From sequence record NZ_CP070571.1: DNA of 64,000 nt. One strand, given 5' to 3'. How positions within the stretch are numbered: position 1 is the first letter of the stretch; every line of letters begins with the position of its first letter. Positions 48,429 to 52,183 of this stretch are shown in pieces. The position numbers were made by a program, and so were the translations under genes. The notes under the pieces are model-generated. The model was given only the letters and a program-made list of their open reading frames with translations, did not search any database and was not told the origin of the DNA. The stretch comes from a plasmid.

Positions 48429-48743
48429 ATGAAAACTAAAAGCATCATCTTCACCGCAGCCCTCTTACTGACCGGCTGCGCCAGCCAGTCACAAGTTGAC
48501 CAGTTAACCAAGCAGGTGAATACGCTTAAAACAGATTTGTACAACCTACAGATTCAACAGCGTAATGATACACAGGCACTTCAGCGCGAAGTACAGAAAT
48601 CGCGCCCCATCGGGGTTTGCTATCTTGACGGCCAACCCTACTCACAAGGAGCGGTTATTGCTGGCCGCATTTGTGCCAGCAATGGCGTTATCGTCAATGG
48701 CAAACCTACAGAAGTTTCATGGCAGGTTTATCACCGCCGCTAA
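48429..48743 (+). CDS. 104-aa lipoprotein with coiled-coil (possible kikA ORF104-like)
   Basis: MKTKSIIFTAALLLTGCASQ lipobox. The size matches my memory of the IncN kikA ORF104 (unverified). Confidence 0.45.
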   Translation: MKTKSIIFTAALLLTGCASQSQVDQLTKQVNTLKTDLYNLQIQQRNDTQALQREVQKSRPIGVCYLDGQPYSQGAVIAGRICASNGVIVNGKPTEVSWQVYHRR

Positions 48744-48790
48744 CAACGCGCGTTCGGGGCTTCGGCCCCGTTTTTTATGGTACAGGTAGC

Positions 48791-49444
48791 ATGGATATAC
48801 TTTCCCTTTTCCCTTCTAACGTAATCGCATTGTGGGCCGTGTCATTTGGTTTTCTGGCCGTCCTGTATTGGTGGAAGATCACCGCCAGAAAACGCAGACA
48901 CAAACGCAAGCAGCAACAAGCCCGGCGTGTACTCGCAAAAATTCAGACCCTACCGGCGTTCGGCTACAAGATCGCGTATCTCAGGAAGATAGACCCTTTC
49001 ACCTTTGAAGAACTGTTAATGGAGGGCTTCGAATCGCATGGCTTCAGAACTATCAGAAACAAACGCTATACCGGTGATGGAGGCATTGACGGCCAGGTAA
49101 TAATCGGCAAGCATCGTTATCTCATCCAGGCCAAACGCTATCGCGGCCACATTGCTTTACAGCACGTTCAAGAGTTCGATAAGTTGCTTAAACGACATAA
49201 CTGTCGCGGTTTGTTTTGCCATACCGGAAAAACCGGCGCAGGTTCAAAAGCTGTTAGCTTCGCCAGTGATCGGATGGAGATTATCAGCGGCCAGCGCCTG
49301 ATTGATTTACTCACGCCCGGCAGCTCCTTTACCATCGCGACCGCACCGCAGACAATGATGAGGCGTACCGCAGCAACGCGAGGAACGAACACCATTGTCG
49401 AGGAAGCGGATAAAAAGACAACCGATAGCATGAGAGTTAATTAA
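48791..49444 (+). CDS. Mrr-cat (PD-(D/E)xK) restriction-endonuclease-like domain protein with N-terminal TM anchor
   Basis: Start at MDILSLFPSNVIALWAVSFGFLAVLYWW. Motif GDGGIDGQVIIG...LIQAKRY. Confidence 0.6.
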   Translation: MDILSLFPSNVIALWAVSFGFLAVLYWWKITARKRRHKRKQQQARRVLAKIQTLPAFGYKIAYLRKIDPFTFEELLMEGFESHGFRTIRNKRYTGDGGIDGQVIIGKHRYLIQAKRYRGHIALQHVQEFDKLLKRHNCRGLFCHTGKTGAGSKAVSFASDRMEIISGQRLIDLLTPGSSFTIATAPQTMMRRTAATRGTNTIVEEADKKTTDSMRVN

Positions 49445-49846
49445 ATGAAGTCAGTAACTATAGAAGCAAAAACTTTTGCTGAAATGTTGGGGATAACAGA
49501 AGGAGAGTTAATTTTCGCTATTAAAACAACTGGCACATTTAAAAACAAAACCATTCCACAACCTTATGAACCACATAAATCAAAGAATAGGTTTCTATAT
49601 TCTGACGTTATGAAATTCATCGAATCAACAAAAGAAAAAGAAAACCTTCAGAAAAGGTATTTGATGCACTTTCGTCGGTGCAGAACATTAGATACTCTTG
49701 AAAAGGTTTTCGAAAACTTACGCGACAAATTAGCAGGAAAAGAACTAGATGCAATGATGAGCGCCTCAGACCATCGCAGAGCCGAAATCACTCACAATAC
49801 TTTATGGGATAAAGTCCCCGCATCTGCATGGAAAAATGTAAAATAA
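49445..49846 (+). CDS. hypothetical protein, possible HTH (excisionase/MerR-like) partner, translationally coupled to the Mrr-like gene
   Basis: TAAATG overlap. N-terminal FAEMLGITEGELIFAIKTTGTF. AT-rich. Confidence 0.45.
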   Translation: MKSVTIEAKTFAEMLGITEGELIFAIKTTGTFKNKTIPQPYEPHKSKNRFLYSDVMKFIESTKEKENLQKRYLMHFRRCRTLDTLEKVFENLRDKLAGKELDAMMSASDHRRAEITHNTLWDKVPASAWKNVK

Positions 49847-49873
49847 AAAAAGCCCGCTAACGGGCTTTTTTTA
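49846..49873. terminator. bidirectional rho-independent terminator (aaaaaaagcccgctaacgggcttttttt)
   Basis: Perfect hairpin flanked by A-run and T-run, between convergent operons. Confidence 0.75.
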
Positions 49874-50308
49874 CTCACCACGACCATTCATACCATGAGT
49901 GATAGTTTCTATTTTTTTCAACTCTTCAAACTTCTTATCTTGCTTATAAAGATAAGCATTAATTTTCTTGCGATCATCCCGAACGGTAAGAAAACTTTTG
50001 CTGTTAAATAACCCCATAAAAAAGCTTCTAAAACCCTCATCATCAGCACTACGTTCGAAATAATCAAATATTAACGACGATGGAATAACCATCTTGCACT
50101 TCAAATACACACCGGTTAGTACAAAAAAAACCACGAAAGCAATCGCACACATAACCAGTTCGTTAAACTTATCTCCAATAGCAAAAAGAATAGTGAACGC
50201 AACTACATTTAAAATTTTAATCTTAAATCGCAATTTAGAATTAAAACGATCATGATTATTTATCTTTTCAAGTATCTGCTTCCCTAGAGATAATTCGCTA
50301 ATAGCCAT
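49871..50308 (-). CDS. hypothetical 2-TM membrane protein (145 aa), last gene of the mazEF-containing operon
   Basis: Start 8 nt after the mazF stop. AT-rich. Confidence 0.5.
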   Translation of the reverse strand: MAISELSLGKQILEKINNHDRFNSKLRFKIKILNVVAFTILFAIGDKFNELVMCAIAFVVFFVLTGVYLKCKMVIPSSLIFDYFERSADDEGFRSFFMGLFNSKSFLTVRDDRKKINAYLYKQDKKFEELKKIETITHGMNGRGE

Positions 50309-50316
50309 AATAGTAC

Positions 50317-50643
50317 CTATCCAATCAATACTTTTAATTTAGACCTGACCTCAGCCAACACAGCAGCAGACACTTTTCCTTTCTTAACTGCCCCCCGTTC
50401 ACGCCAATCAAGACTTTTCACCTGGTCAGCGAGTACAGCGCTCCCCTCTCCGTTCCGCACCTCGAATGGATAACCTTTTATTTTTGTTGTCATAGGGCAG
50501 CACAACAACAGCCCTATTCTTCCGTTATATACCGCAGGACTTAACACTAAAGCTGGTCTATGGCCCGCTTGTTCATGCCCGGCTTGCGGATCAAAATCCA
50601 TCCATACAATATCACCGGCATCAGGAATATAATCACGTTTCAT
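50317..50643 (-). CDS. mazF: MazF/PemK-family endoribonuclease toxin
   Basis: 108 aa, MKRDYIPDAGDIVWMDFDPQAGHEQAGHRPALVLSP...LADQVKSLDWRERGA. Alignable residue-for-residue with E. coli MazF by recall. Confidence 0.85.
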   Translation of the reverse strand: MKRDYIPDAGDIVWMDFDPQAGHEQAGHRPALVLSPAVYNGRIGLLLCCPMTTKIKGYPFEVRNGEGSAVLADQVKSLDWRERGAVKKGKVSAAVLAEVRSKLKVLIG

Positions 50644-50890
50644 TTTTTAGTCTCTTGCTGATATACCCAACCCATATAAATGTAATGATAAGCACCCCAC
50701 AAAAAATGAACATTATTGCAAACGGAGTTGTGTCAAGAAGAGATACAGCCTCAATACCACCAATAGAGATTGAGTTATCTTTAAATAATTTACTAAACCC
50801 TAACCAGATGGAATACAACCCAACACCAACCCAAATAAGAGCGCCTAAAAACTCCAGGTAGCTATAAATTTTTTTCAAAAAATTCAGCAT
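50633..50890 (-). CDS. hypothetical 2-TM small membrane protein (85 aa) encoded between mazE and mazF
   Basis: ORF starts 11 nt after the mazE stop and overlaps the mazF start by 11 nt. Two 20-aa hydrophobic helices. AT-rich, so chance ORF not excluded. Confidence 0.45.
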   Translation of the reverse strand: MLNFLKKIYSYLEFLGALIWVGVGLYSIWLGFSKLFKDNSISIGGIEAVSLLDTTPFAIMFIFCGVLIITFIWVGYISKRLKNET

Positions 50891-50901
50891 AACCCCTCCA
50901 A

Positions 50902-51147
50902 TTATAAAAGTTCTTTACCCACTGGAGATCCGAAAGAGATTTCCTCATGAATATTTTCGTTAGTAACACCGGCCATCAGAGCATCCAGTGAATACTCCTT
51001 CGTTTTAACGGGCACGATAGTAATTGCGCCATCCTCTACCGACAGCTCCACTACATCATCAACGTTCAACGAAGCAGCTTTGACAATCGCAGAAGGGAGG
51101 CGAACAGACGGGCTATTACCCCATTTTTTAATGATTACTTGAGTCAT
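50902..51147 (-). CDS. mazE: MazE/PemI-family antitoxin (AbrB/SpoVT fold)
   Basis: 81 aa, MTQVIIKKWGNSPSVRLPSAIVKAASLNVDDVVEL. Similar to E. coli MazE (VKRWGNSPAVRIPA). Confidence 0.85.
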   Translation of the reverse strand: MTQVIIKKWGNSPSVRLPSAIVKAASLNVDDVVELSVEDGAITIVPVKTKEYSLDALMAGVTNENIHEEISFGSPVGKELL

Positions 51148-51178
51148 GACATACCTCTCAATAAAAAAAGAAAACTAA

Positions 51179-51385
51179 TTAGCGACTCTTTAGGATGTAC
51201 CAGGCTTCTTTAGCTTCTGAAAGCGCCCAAACCCACGCCAGAGCCGATGCGATACACAATGCGGTCATATTCCCAAAGTGTCCCGGCGTGTATTCATGGC
51301 CGTGTAAAACAAGCCCAACCAGAGAAGCCACACTCATCACTATGAAAACAAGCCCAAACATGATGTGAAACATAAGGCCAAACAC
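51179..51385 (-). CDS. hypothetical small 2-TM membrane protein (68 aa), first gene of the operon
   Basis: ORF 31 nt upstream of mazE. The direct repeat CATTGTTGATAC x2 lies upstream. Confidence 0.45.
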   Translation of the reverse strand: MFGLMFHIMFGLVFIVMSVASLVGLVLHGHEYTPGHFGNMTALCIASALAWVWALSEAKEAWYILKSR

Positions 51386-51598
51386 TCATCACCTCTCGTA
51401 TCATCATTGTTGATACACCCAGTGTAGAGCCATCTCTTTAGCGTGTCAACATTGTTGATACGGATAGTGTCTCACAAACGATGATTTTTGTTACACCGCC
51501 CCCACCCCATCCAAAAATATCAAAATGGATGTTGTCAGTGTAACAAAACTCGTTACAATACTATGTGTAACAAAAACGGTGTAACAAAAGCAGGGCAT

Positions 51599-52183
51599 AT
51601 GAAAATAGGCTACGCCAGAAAGTCAACCAAAGAGCAAGACACATCCCTTGAGTATCAGATCGAGGCTTTACAAAAAGCTGGCTGCGAAAAATGGTATGCA
51701 GAGCAGGTATCGAGGGGCGGTAATAAGCGCCTGAAAACAGGTACACCAGAGTTGGAAAACTGTCTGAAAGCGCTTCGCGCCGGTGACACACTGGTAGTAT
51801 GGGCGCTAGACCGATTAGGTGGCACTCTCTTGCAGCTCTTGCAGCTCATGAATGAGCTACGCAGCAAAGGTATTCACTTTGAGAGCCTCAAAGAGCGCAT
51901 AGACACACAAAGCCCAATGGGTGAAATGTACTATTCCCTCATCGCTATTTTTTCCAATTTCGAGGTAGCCAGAAACCACGAAAGGACAATGGCCGGGCTT
52001 GCGGCCGCAAAGAAGAAAGGACGCATTGGCGGCAGAAAACCAAAGCTATCCCCACAGGACATTAAAGAAATTAACGCGCTTGTTAAATCGCCAGAAATTA
52101 CGGTAAAAGAGATCGCGGCACGTTTTAACGTTTCACGTCCAACGATTTACAGACATATTACCCCCGACAGCAATACTGATTAA
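51599..52183 (+). CDS. serine recombinase/resolvase (ResP-like)
   Basis: 194 aa from MKIGYARKSTKEQDTS (catalytic Ser). Upstream TGTAACAAAA repeats x4 suggest a res site. Confidence 0.8.
   Translation: MKIGYARKSTKEQDTSLEYQIEALQKAGCEKWYAEQVSRGGNKRLKTGTPELENCLKALRAGDTLVVWALDRLGGTLLQLLQLMNELRSKGIHFESLKERIDTQSPMGEMYYSLIAIFSNFEVARNHERTMAGLAAAKKKGRIGGRKPKLSPQDIKEINALVKSPEITVKEIAARFNVSRPTIYRHITPDSNTD

Follow-up and report, generated by a model that had tools for sequence, protein, structure and literature searches.

Small membrane-protein genes within and around a mazEF operon of IncN-type plasmids

A 64,000-nt window of plasmid NZ_CP070571.1 (all positions given are window coordinates) was found to contain a mazEF toxin-antitoxin (TA) operon in which the antitoxin gene mazE and the toxin gene mazF are separated by an open reading frame (ORF85) for a predicted two-pass inner-membrane protein. 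Five closely spaced genes on the minus strand (ORF68, mazE, ORF85, mazF and ORF145, identified from the list of open reading frames and the sequence) have one promoter and one terminator between them. The protein content places the locus in the MazEF family, while its gene organisation departs from the norm of two adjacent genes; this intercalated membrane-gene layout is real, conserved and undescribed in the literature searched. The five genes are not a fixed module but the local form of a modular operon with gain, loss and replacement of genes. The reading we favour, with confidence that stands at about even, is that the MazEF addiction module serves fast-evolving genes for small membrane proteins as a landing pad and a platform for expression, with translation of mazF coupled to that of the preceding gene.

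Layout and recurrence of the operon

The first gene of the operon is ORF68 (51179-51385, minus strand, GTG start), a facultative cassette for a small inner-membrane protein with approximately two predicted transmembrane (TM) segments. It is followed on the same strand by mazE (50902-51147), which encodes an antitoxin of 81 amino acids (aa) with the AbrB/MazE fold, ORF85 (50633-50890), an orphan whose two-pass product is predicted to be N-in/C-in, mazF (50317-50643), which encodes an endoribonuclease toxin of 108 aa, and ORF145 (49871-50308), a facultative gene for a predicted hairpin-anchored protein. ORF68 lies 31 nt from mazE and mazE 11 nt from ORF85, ORF85 and mazF overlap by 11 nt, and mazF is separated from ORF145 by 8 nt; the coordinates and spacings given in an earlier note on this DNA were all reproduced to the base. 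The same note had held that the locus is not a canonical two-gene mazEF, and the 258-bp ORF85 does separate mazE from mazF; the two-gene adjacency usual for the MazEF family is thus not found at the window locus.

As judged by profile and structure-database matches, MazE and MazF are intact and close homologues of the E. coli pair, as the note had recognised. MazE matched the Pfam family MazE_antitoxin (PF04014, E = 5.8e-12) and the MazE chains of PDB entries 1mvf and 1ub4 (1e-17 over residues 5-80); its score of 68 against the NCBIfam MazE equivalog was under the cut-off of 113, which marks it as a divergent MazE. MazF matched the Pfam family PemK_toxin (PF02452, E = 3.3e-26), the NCBIfam MazF equivalog (169 bits, with a cut-off of 120) and E. 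coli MazF in PDB (5e-37), and its EQAGHRP and TT motifs were aligned; R29 and T52 are known as the catalytic residues. As members of the MazEF family, MazF would be expected to be toxic, MazE to neutralise it and the operon to be autoregulated at operators; what the sequence displays are conserved palindromes, over the -35 hexamer and in the leader.

The layout is more than chance. ORF85 occupies the same position between mazE and mazF in 107 PLSDB plasmids, the number of plasmids with a MazF of at least 80% identity being 108; the check proposed in the note, for conservation of the mazE-TM-mazF order in other plasmids, was therefore positive. The mazE-ORF85-mazF core was also present in 55 of 5426 complete E. 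coli genomes, in every case on a plasmid (0 chromosomal). In contrast, when the 80 nearest non-IncN relatives of MazF were inspected (species-representative genomes, 62-73% identity), mazE was adjacent to mazF in 78, one pair was separated by a 47-nt gap and one was cut by a contig end, giving adjacency in 78 of 79 informative relatives. Relatives of MazF in Dickeya and Serratia (77-80% identity) belong to canonical overlapping pairs with the same palindromic operators.

A neighbour-joining tree was built from concatenated MazE and MazF and rooted on E. coli K-12. The intercalated loci were monophyletic in 83% of bootstraps and the canonical trio formed a clade in 92%, although recombination could blur such a tree. 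Taken with the canonical sister loci, the tree makes the simplest history one in which a canonical mazEF with the promoter of the window operon underwent one intercalation in a plasmid lineage, followed by repeated replacement, gain or loss of cassettes. The chromosomal MazEF closest to the plasmid clade is that of Xenorhabdus bovienii (L105:2400-2500; L-numbers designate the related loci), with a MazF 80% identical; its mazE and mazF do not overlap as usual but are set apart by 101 nt of non-coding sequence. This spacer may be the scar of a lost intercalated gene.

By its gene content and order, the backbone of the window plasmid, a conjugative resistance plasmid, is of the IncN3 (pN-Cit) type: the synteny of H-NS, KikA, Mrr, Hha, the operon, ResP and RepA, together with a VirB-type type IV secretion system, EexN, MobF and StbABC, is that of pN-Cit, the IncN3 reference (PMC9430514). 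Across a 2.1-kb region the sequence shows 100% identity to conjugative plasmids typed as IncN from Citrobacter, Morganella and E. coli. R46 (IncN1) carries no mazEF at the corresponding position.

The membrane-protein genes and their turnover

ORF68, ORF85 and ORF145 are real genes, judging from frames that stay open across diverged loci and from ratios of non-synonymous to synonymous substitution rates (dN/dS) well below 1. Pairwise dN/dS across diverged loci was 0.15-0.59 for ORF85, 0.03-0.12 for mazE and 0.02-0.12 for mazF; the values for ORF68 and ORF145 were 0.07-0.27 and 0.14-0.25. Each of the three is preceded by a sequence resembling a Shine-Dalgarno (SD) site. These results uphold the note's view of the small ORFs as membrane-type genes that are under selection and belong to one transcription unit with mazEF: the frames are conserved and purifying selection is evident. 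The notion that they are chance open frames in AT-rich spacer DNA could draw on the absence of ORF68 from the RefSeq annotation of identical records and on the lack of a family match for any of the three, yet it is almost certainly wrong in view of the dN/dS values, the SD sequences ahead of the starts, frames that remain open across saturated synonymous divergence, and an antisense frame of ORF85 that is interrupted in several variants. That interruption also led us to reject a gene encoded on the opposite strand within ORF85.

Two other descriptions in the note held in part. Two hydrophobic helices had been assigned to each small protein, which is the case for ORF85 and ORF145, while hydropathy analysis of ORF68 gave one strong and one moderate TM segment. 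The operon had further been described as an AT-richer island; this is true of ORF85 (GC 0.345), ORF145 (0.326) and the neighbouring hha-like gene, but not of mazE (0.435), mazF (0.465) or ORF68 (0.483), which are near the GC of the backbone (0.45-0.52).

The AlphaFold2 (AF2) model of ORF85 consists of helices at residues 2-37 and 54-84 with a loop between them (predicted local distance difference test score, pLDDT, 68), a plain helical hairpin too generic for a fold search. Only about 12 and about 9 residues are predicted to be cytoplasmic and hence available for contact with soluble MazE or MazF. Conservation is highest in the predicted periplasmic loop and at the start of TM2 (F-x-D-x-S...S-L-L-D-T-T-P), and the 27 invariant columns of the alignment are concentrated in the loop and TM2. 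Identity among loci is 31-88% for ORF85 and 73-100% for MazE and MazF; indels in ORF85 come in multiples of three, and selection holds down to 31% identity. ORF85 forms only 19 clusters at 90% identity, a profile search of 1.8 billion representatives recovered five at 50% identity, and every genomic context examined was an IncN-type mazE-X-mazF locus.

ORF85 is also a local peak of divergence in three near-identical IncN2-like plasmids (L006-L008, 2501-2758). The three loci differ by 7-10% of nucleotides in ORF85, 0-0.4% in mazE, 1.2-3.4% in mazF and 0.2-1.1% in ORF145, with flanks differing by 0-4%, and dN/dS of ORF85 among them is 0.46-0.59. Either allele exchange by recombination or diversifying selection would account for the peak.

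ORF68 is, by DNA alignment, an insertion of approximately 230 nt between operator 2 (see below) and the ribosome-binding site of mazE that is absent from minimal loci. Its loop is conserved (LHGHEYTPGHFGNMT). More than 1000 IncL/M plasmids of the pOXA-48 type carry homologues (55% identity) in an operon without MazEF; the note had counted ORF68 as part of the TA module, which does not agree with homologues that lack a TA partner. In this family, seen for example in the homologue at L017:3001-3219, the His-rich loop (LHxHEYTxGHFxNMT) is invariant and the tail reads AKEAWYI; the family comprises uncharacterised small membrane proteins that are widespread in clinical plasmids.

ORF145 has predicted TM segments at residues 26-44 and 51-69; its N-terminal helix is conserved, and its C-terminal domain, some 70 aa long, is predicted to lie in the cytoplasm. 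The gene was found in 65 plasmids at 80% coverage or more and is confined to the mazEF operon; its AF2 model is all-helical and of low confidence (pLDDT 56), too poor for a fold search.

Profile searches of ORF68, ORF85 and ORF145 against Pfam, NCBIfam, PADLOC and PHROG identified no significant family, and the same searches with all the cassette proteins of related loci gave nothing significant. No SecB-like chaperone domain or DNA-binding regulator domain was detected in the three with Pfam or NCBIfam; all are predicted membrane hairpins. There was no Pfam match to holin, Hok, Ldr or TisB, and the best PHROG matches (E = 0.06-0.19) were to families of unknown function. None of the five operon proteins matched PADLOC-DB 2.0 at E <= 1.

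Comparison of related loci revealed about a dozen architectures. Written with E for mazE, F for mazF and ORF lengths in aa, the window arrangement is 68-E-85-F-145, and the others include 68-E-180-85-F-104; 93-68-E-85-F-145 (L002); the order of L002 with ORF180 before ORF85 (L003); 93-E-180-85-F-145; 68-E-85-F; E-85-F; 93-E-180-F-145; 92-E-188-F; E-124-F; 68-E-124-188-F-112; and E-141-F. The slot upstream of mazE thus holds ORF68, a 93-aa protein with three TM segments, or both, and that downstream of mazF is occupied by ORF145, ORF104/112 or soluble ORFs (83 and 160 aa) or is empty. Between mazE and mazF were found ORF85, ORF180 with ORF85, ORF180 alone (L113), a 188-aa relative of ORF180, a 124-aa protein, the 124- and 188-aa proteins together, or a 141-aa protein (X141), whose homology to ORF188 is marginal (pairwise E = 0.012). 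The minimal form (L010, L012) comprises the promoter and operators, mazE, an ORF85 homologue, mazF and a terminator. The five-gene unit put forward in the note is therefore not sustained: ORF68 and ORF145 are missing from the minimal loci, and other cassettes take their place in sister plasmids. Its pairing of ORF85 with mazEF fared better, since ORF85 is strictly linked to mazEF; even so, the close relative L113, with a MazF 89% identical, has dispensed with ORF85 and retained MazEF, and the idea that ORF85 is indispensable was rejected because L113, L109 and L111 all lack it.

The membrane genes evolve three to four times faster than MazE and MazF, and no matching change was seen in MazE or MazF. 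Members of some cassette families were also found away from an intact MazEF. A distant member of the ORF180 family lies beside a SprT-like gene in a plasmid bearing H-NS and topoisomerase genes, and an IncN plasmid of Cronobacter has an ORF104-family membrane gene 3' of a degenerate mazEF whose two genes are directly adjacent. In this plasmid (L020:2428-2913, at the same backbone position) MazF is truncated to 84 aa and has lost the EQAGHRP catalytic region; the toxin is in decay, with the ORF104-family gene beside it.

Predicted control of the operon and possible roles of the membrane proteins

A consensus scan identified a sigma-70-type promoter upstream of ORF68 (51421-51449, minus strand; -35 TTGACA at 51449-51444, 17-nt spacer, -10 TACACT at 51426-51421) with 10 of 12 consensus matches; it is the sole promoter-like site on the minus strand in 49300-51800 and is conserved in related loci. 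Two 19-bp palindromes on the same strand, candidate operators, were found by inverted and direct repeat search: operator 1 (51443-51461, mRNA sense GTATCAACAATGTTGACAC) overlaps the -35 hexamer, and operator 2 (51398-51416, GTATCAACAATGATGATAC) is situated in the 5' leader, 5 nt downstream of the -10 hexamer. In a DNA alignment the columns of operator 1 were invariant across five architectures, and its palindrome recurs in L107 and in the Dickeya and Serratia sister loci with canonical mazEF. By analogy with autoregulation of E. coli mazEF, MazE or MazE-MazF may bind the palindromes and repress the promoter. At the other end of the operon, the perfect bidirectional terminator reported in the note was found at 49844-49873 (13-bp stem, 4-nt loop, A-run and T-run). 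Its 13-nt arms are 100% complementary, it is common to the operon and the convergent hha-like gene, and homologous hairpins lie directly 3' of mazF in the minimal loci; an Rfam search returned nothing but sub-threshold matches on this terminator.

Calculated pairing energies indicated that ORF85 has the strongest SD sequence in the operon (-9.8 kcal/mol) and mazF the weakest (-2.9 kcal/mol), and in every ORF85-bearing locus the ORF85 stop overlaps the mazF ATG by 11, 8 or 4 nt, even at 31-40% identity of ORF85. The strong SD of ORF85, the near-absent SD of mazF and a mazF start inside the ORF85 stop region suggest that MazF synthesis is slaved to the preceding gene: it would depend on ribosomes finishing ORF85, not mazE, and the coupling would hold toxin output under that of the upstream genes. 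Loci that lack ORF85 have a similar junction. The stop of ORF180 overlaps the mazF ATG in L113, the 188-aa ORF (X188) ends at the mazF start in L109 and L022 (mazF of L022 has an SD of its own, -8.0 kcal/mol), and the 124-aa ORF (X124) stops 9 nt, and X141 14 nt, short of it.

Such junctions raise the possibility that ORF85 works in cis only, as a translated spacer that sets the MazF:MazE ratio by translational coupling and has a functionless product. The weak mazF SD, the constant overlap and the gene that abuts or nearly abuts mazF where ORF85 is missing (L113, L109, L022, X124, X141) would all fit, but at identities as low as 31% the ORF85 amino acids are still under purifying selection, the 27 invariant columns cluster in the loop and TM2, and the indels are in frame; the proposal is decidedly improbable, as a pure spacer would keep no peptide motif.

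Other features of the transcript were examined and set aside. A 10-bp stem is present at the mazF start, but the fold is no better than that of shuffled sequence (z = +1.2) and the pairing sequence is by eye not conserved, so masking of the start by RNA structure was rejected. A frameshift fusion of ORF85 and MazF at an A-run was likewise dismissed; by eye a -1 slip would not lead into the mazF frame, and L010 and L012 do not conserve the run. With respect to ACA sites, mazE has 0 and ORF145 has 1, counts that lack significance, being matched or undercut in 7% and 5% of stretches of equal size across the window, and that are not conserved in homologues; transcripts freed of ACA to resist MazF were accordingly discounted.

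In the landing-pad reading the locus would be a lineage-specific derivative of canonical two-gene mazEF that has retained the promoter and the two palindromic operators, and in which, in an IncN2/N3-type lineage, AT-rich orphan inner-membrane genes were inserted at the operon junctions, ORF68 between operator and mazE, ORF85 in the mazE-mazF junction and ORF145 between mazF and the terminator. Plasmid-free cells would be arrested or killed by MazF. The membrane genes might rely on the TA promoter, with its tight autoregulation, to be expressed at a low and constant level, and need not be obligatory partners of MazEF; tentatively, their products might act independently at the envelope in the manner of prophage 'moron' genes, for instance by excluding phage or foreign DNA or by modulating conjugation. 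This reading is preferred because the cassettes are individually dispensable and interchangeable, because members of the ORF68, ORF180 and ORF104 families are carried by other conjugative plasmids where MazEF is either not intact or missing, because the cassettes evolve independently of MazE and MazF, because ORF85 has almost no cytoplasmic surface, because the same promoter and operators serve minimal three-gene loci and the canonical loci of Dickeya and Serratia, and because every copy is carried by a plasmid, with no chromosomal one in the 5426 E. coli genomes.

Several points weigh on the other side. In a search of about 15 billion proteins ORF85 was found only between mazE and mazF, where an independent passenger might be expected elsewhere as well. 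All examined fillers of the mazE-mazF slot have at least two predicted TM segments, which mere hitch-hiking leaves unexplained. Although cassettes turn over frequently, the slot is filled in every sampled locus of the intercalated clade, and some membrane protein could be required there. The addiction (plasmid-maintenance) role is itself deduced from homology and plasmid location.

The first three of these points speak for a membrane-gated, tripartite TA or abortive infection (Abi) system, the main rival reading, though an unlikely one. Here the intercalated protein (ORF85 or the 124-, 141- or 180/188-aa protein) would be an interchangeable input module that senses entry of phage DNA (for instance from IncN-pilus phages), conjugative entry or membrane damage, whereupon MazF would be released or activated, for example by sequestration or destabilisation of MazE; ORF68 and ORF145 would be further accessory sensors. 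Exclusive linkage of ORF85 to mazEF, a slot that in the plasmid clade is always filled, with membrane proteins throughout and from at least three apparently unrelated two-TM families, and a predicted periplasmic loop as the best-conserved part of ORF85 are all consistent with this; so is the ORF85 divergence hot spot, where dN/dS of up to 0.59 is as in an arms race, and close gene packing with coupling would favour co-assembly. However, the operon proteins have zero matches to PADLOC defence models, L113 lost ORF85 with MazEF intact, MazE and MazF are unchanged when ORF85 changes, the cytoplasmic parts of ORF85 are tiny, and several other cassettes also occur without MazEF. A more specific form, in which the IncN2/N3 mazE-mazF junction is a dedicated slot for interchangeable two-pass 'input' proteins that tie release of MazF to an envelope event such as pilus-specific phage attack or incoming DNA, is considered rather unlikely; if true, it would amount to a modular membrane-gated MazEF system for Abi or addiction, a TA architecture undescribed in the literature searched.

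It was also considered whether the membrane proteins are themselves toxic effectors, similar to holins or type I toxins, that are kept low by MazE, so that loss of MazE would add membrane damage to RNA cleavage. ORF85 does resemble a class II holin (85 aa, two TM segments, N-in/C-in, charged C-terminus), all the genes are downstream of MazE-type operators, and the strongest SD of the operon is that of ORF85. This proposal is nevertheless very improbable: no significant match to holin, Hok, Ldr, TisB or any PHROG was obtained (best E = 0.06), plasmid loss would remove the template for de-repressed transcription, ORF68-family genes are carried by IncL/M plasmids without an adjacent antitoxin, and ACA sites are not depleted, giving no sign of transcripts built to survive MazF.

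Relation to known systems and neighbouring features

E. coli chromosomal mazEF (chpA) has in common with the window locus a MazE of the AbrB fold, a MazF of the ACA-type endoribonuclease family, the antitoxin gene upstream and palindromic operator-like sequences at the promoter. In E. coli the genes overlap by one base and translation of MazF follows that of MazE, whereas at the window locus a 258-bp membrane gene intervenes and mazF appears coupled to ORF85; the window locus also has extra membrane genes before mazE and after mazF, and is borne by plasmids only. PemI/PemK (R100 and IncL/M pOXA-48) and Kis/Kid (R1) likewise place a toxin of the MazF/PemK family on a conjugative resistance plasmid near replication or resolution genes, and Kid is matched by the window MazF at 2e-9. 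A PemK-superfamily toxin in such a setting would presumably act in post-segregational killing. PemIK and Kis/Kid are strict two-gene operons (pemIK of pOXA-48 is adjacent and overlapping), unlike the intercalated window locus, and no intercalated gene in modules of these types was reported in the literature searched.

A third gene co-transcribed with a type II TA pair is known from TAC (HigBA with a SecB-like chaperone), omega-epsilon-zeta and PaaR-PaaA-ParE. The third components of such systems are soluble chaperones or regulators with defined domains, encoded at an end of the operon, whereas the extra genes of the window locus specify interchangeable orphan membrane proteins, one of them encoded between antitoxin and toxin. 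The likeness to prophage 'moron' or superinfection-exclusion genes (T4 Imm, P22 SieA, lambda RexB) is by analogy only, as small, AT-rich, fast-evolving orphan membrane cassettes on a resident promoter; there was no sequence or profile similarity to them in PADLOC or PHROG.

In the literature searched the intervening ORFs are discussed nowhere, and IncN papers give mazE and mazF as list items only. General TA surveys take the absence of TM domains as typical or leave out operons with three or more genes. In Enterobacterales, plasmids of the IncN2 and IncN3 groups are vehicles for the spread of carbapenemase genes and also mobilise other plasmids (PMC9430514, PMC5371602). The one TA module that can be recognised on them differs in build from every close non-plasmid relative, and on either reading the locus is under-described by two-gene TA finders and by RefSeq annotation. 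Should MazF prove to be modulated by the membrane genes, the locus would be the first MazEF linked to the membrane and a natural modular system for studying how type II toxins are triggered. If they are passengers, the locus would illustrate clearly how a TA operon can serve orphan membrane genes as a site of integration and expression, and these unannotated or 'hypothetical' small proteins, one of them common to pOXA-48 plasmids, would merit functional study.

The operon is bounded by a gene with an Hha domain (49445-49846, plus strand) and by resP. The note had put it between an Mrr-like gene and resP, which is correct on the resP side; the immediate neighbour on the other side is the Hha-domain gene, with the Mrr-like gene just beyond. 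The 133-aa 'Hha' ORF appears to be a fusion: only residues 74-130 form the Hha domain, and the N-terminal 65 or so aa match a stand-alone 65-aa ORF beside mrr in R46 (L016:830-1027). RefSeq annotates this ORF inconsistently, as 78 or 133 aa. An 83-aa ORF (MRINVDVF...) downstream of mazF in the IncN-type loci L022, L109 and L111 loosely resembles, by eye, the N-terminal domain of the 'Hha' ORF. The Mrr_cat restriction-endonuclease homologue (48671-49444, plus strand) has a hydrophobic segment at approximately residues 50-75, ahead of the nuclease domain (104-214), and may on this account be membrane-anchored. It is the sole protein of the neighbourhood to match PADLOC (PDC-S02 and type IV restriction endonuclease/restriction models, E ~5e-9).

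Between the promoter of the mazE operon and the start of resP, at 51483-51589, three direct copies of GTGTAACAAAA were observed together with inverted copies (TTTTGTTACAC). These repeats are kept in L010 and L012 and are probably a res site or the operator of resP.

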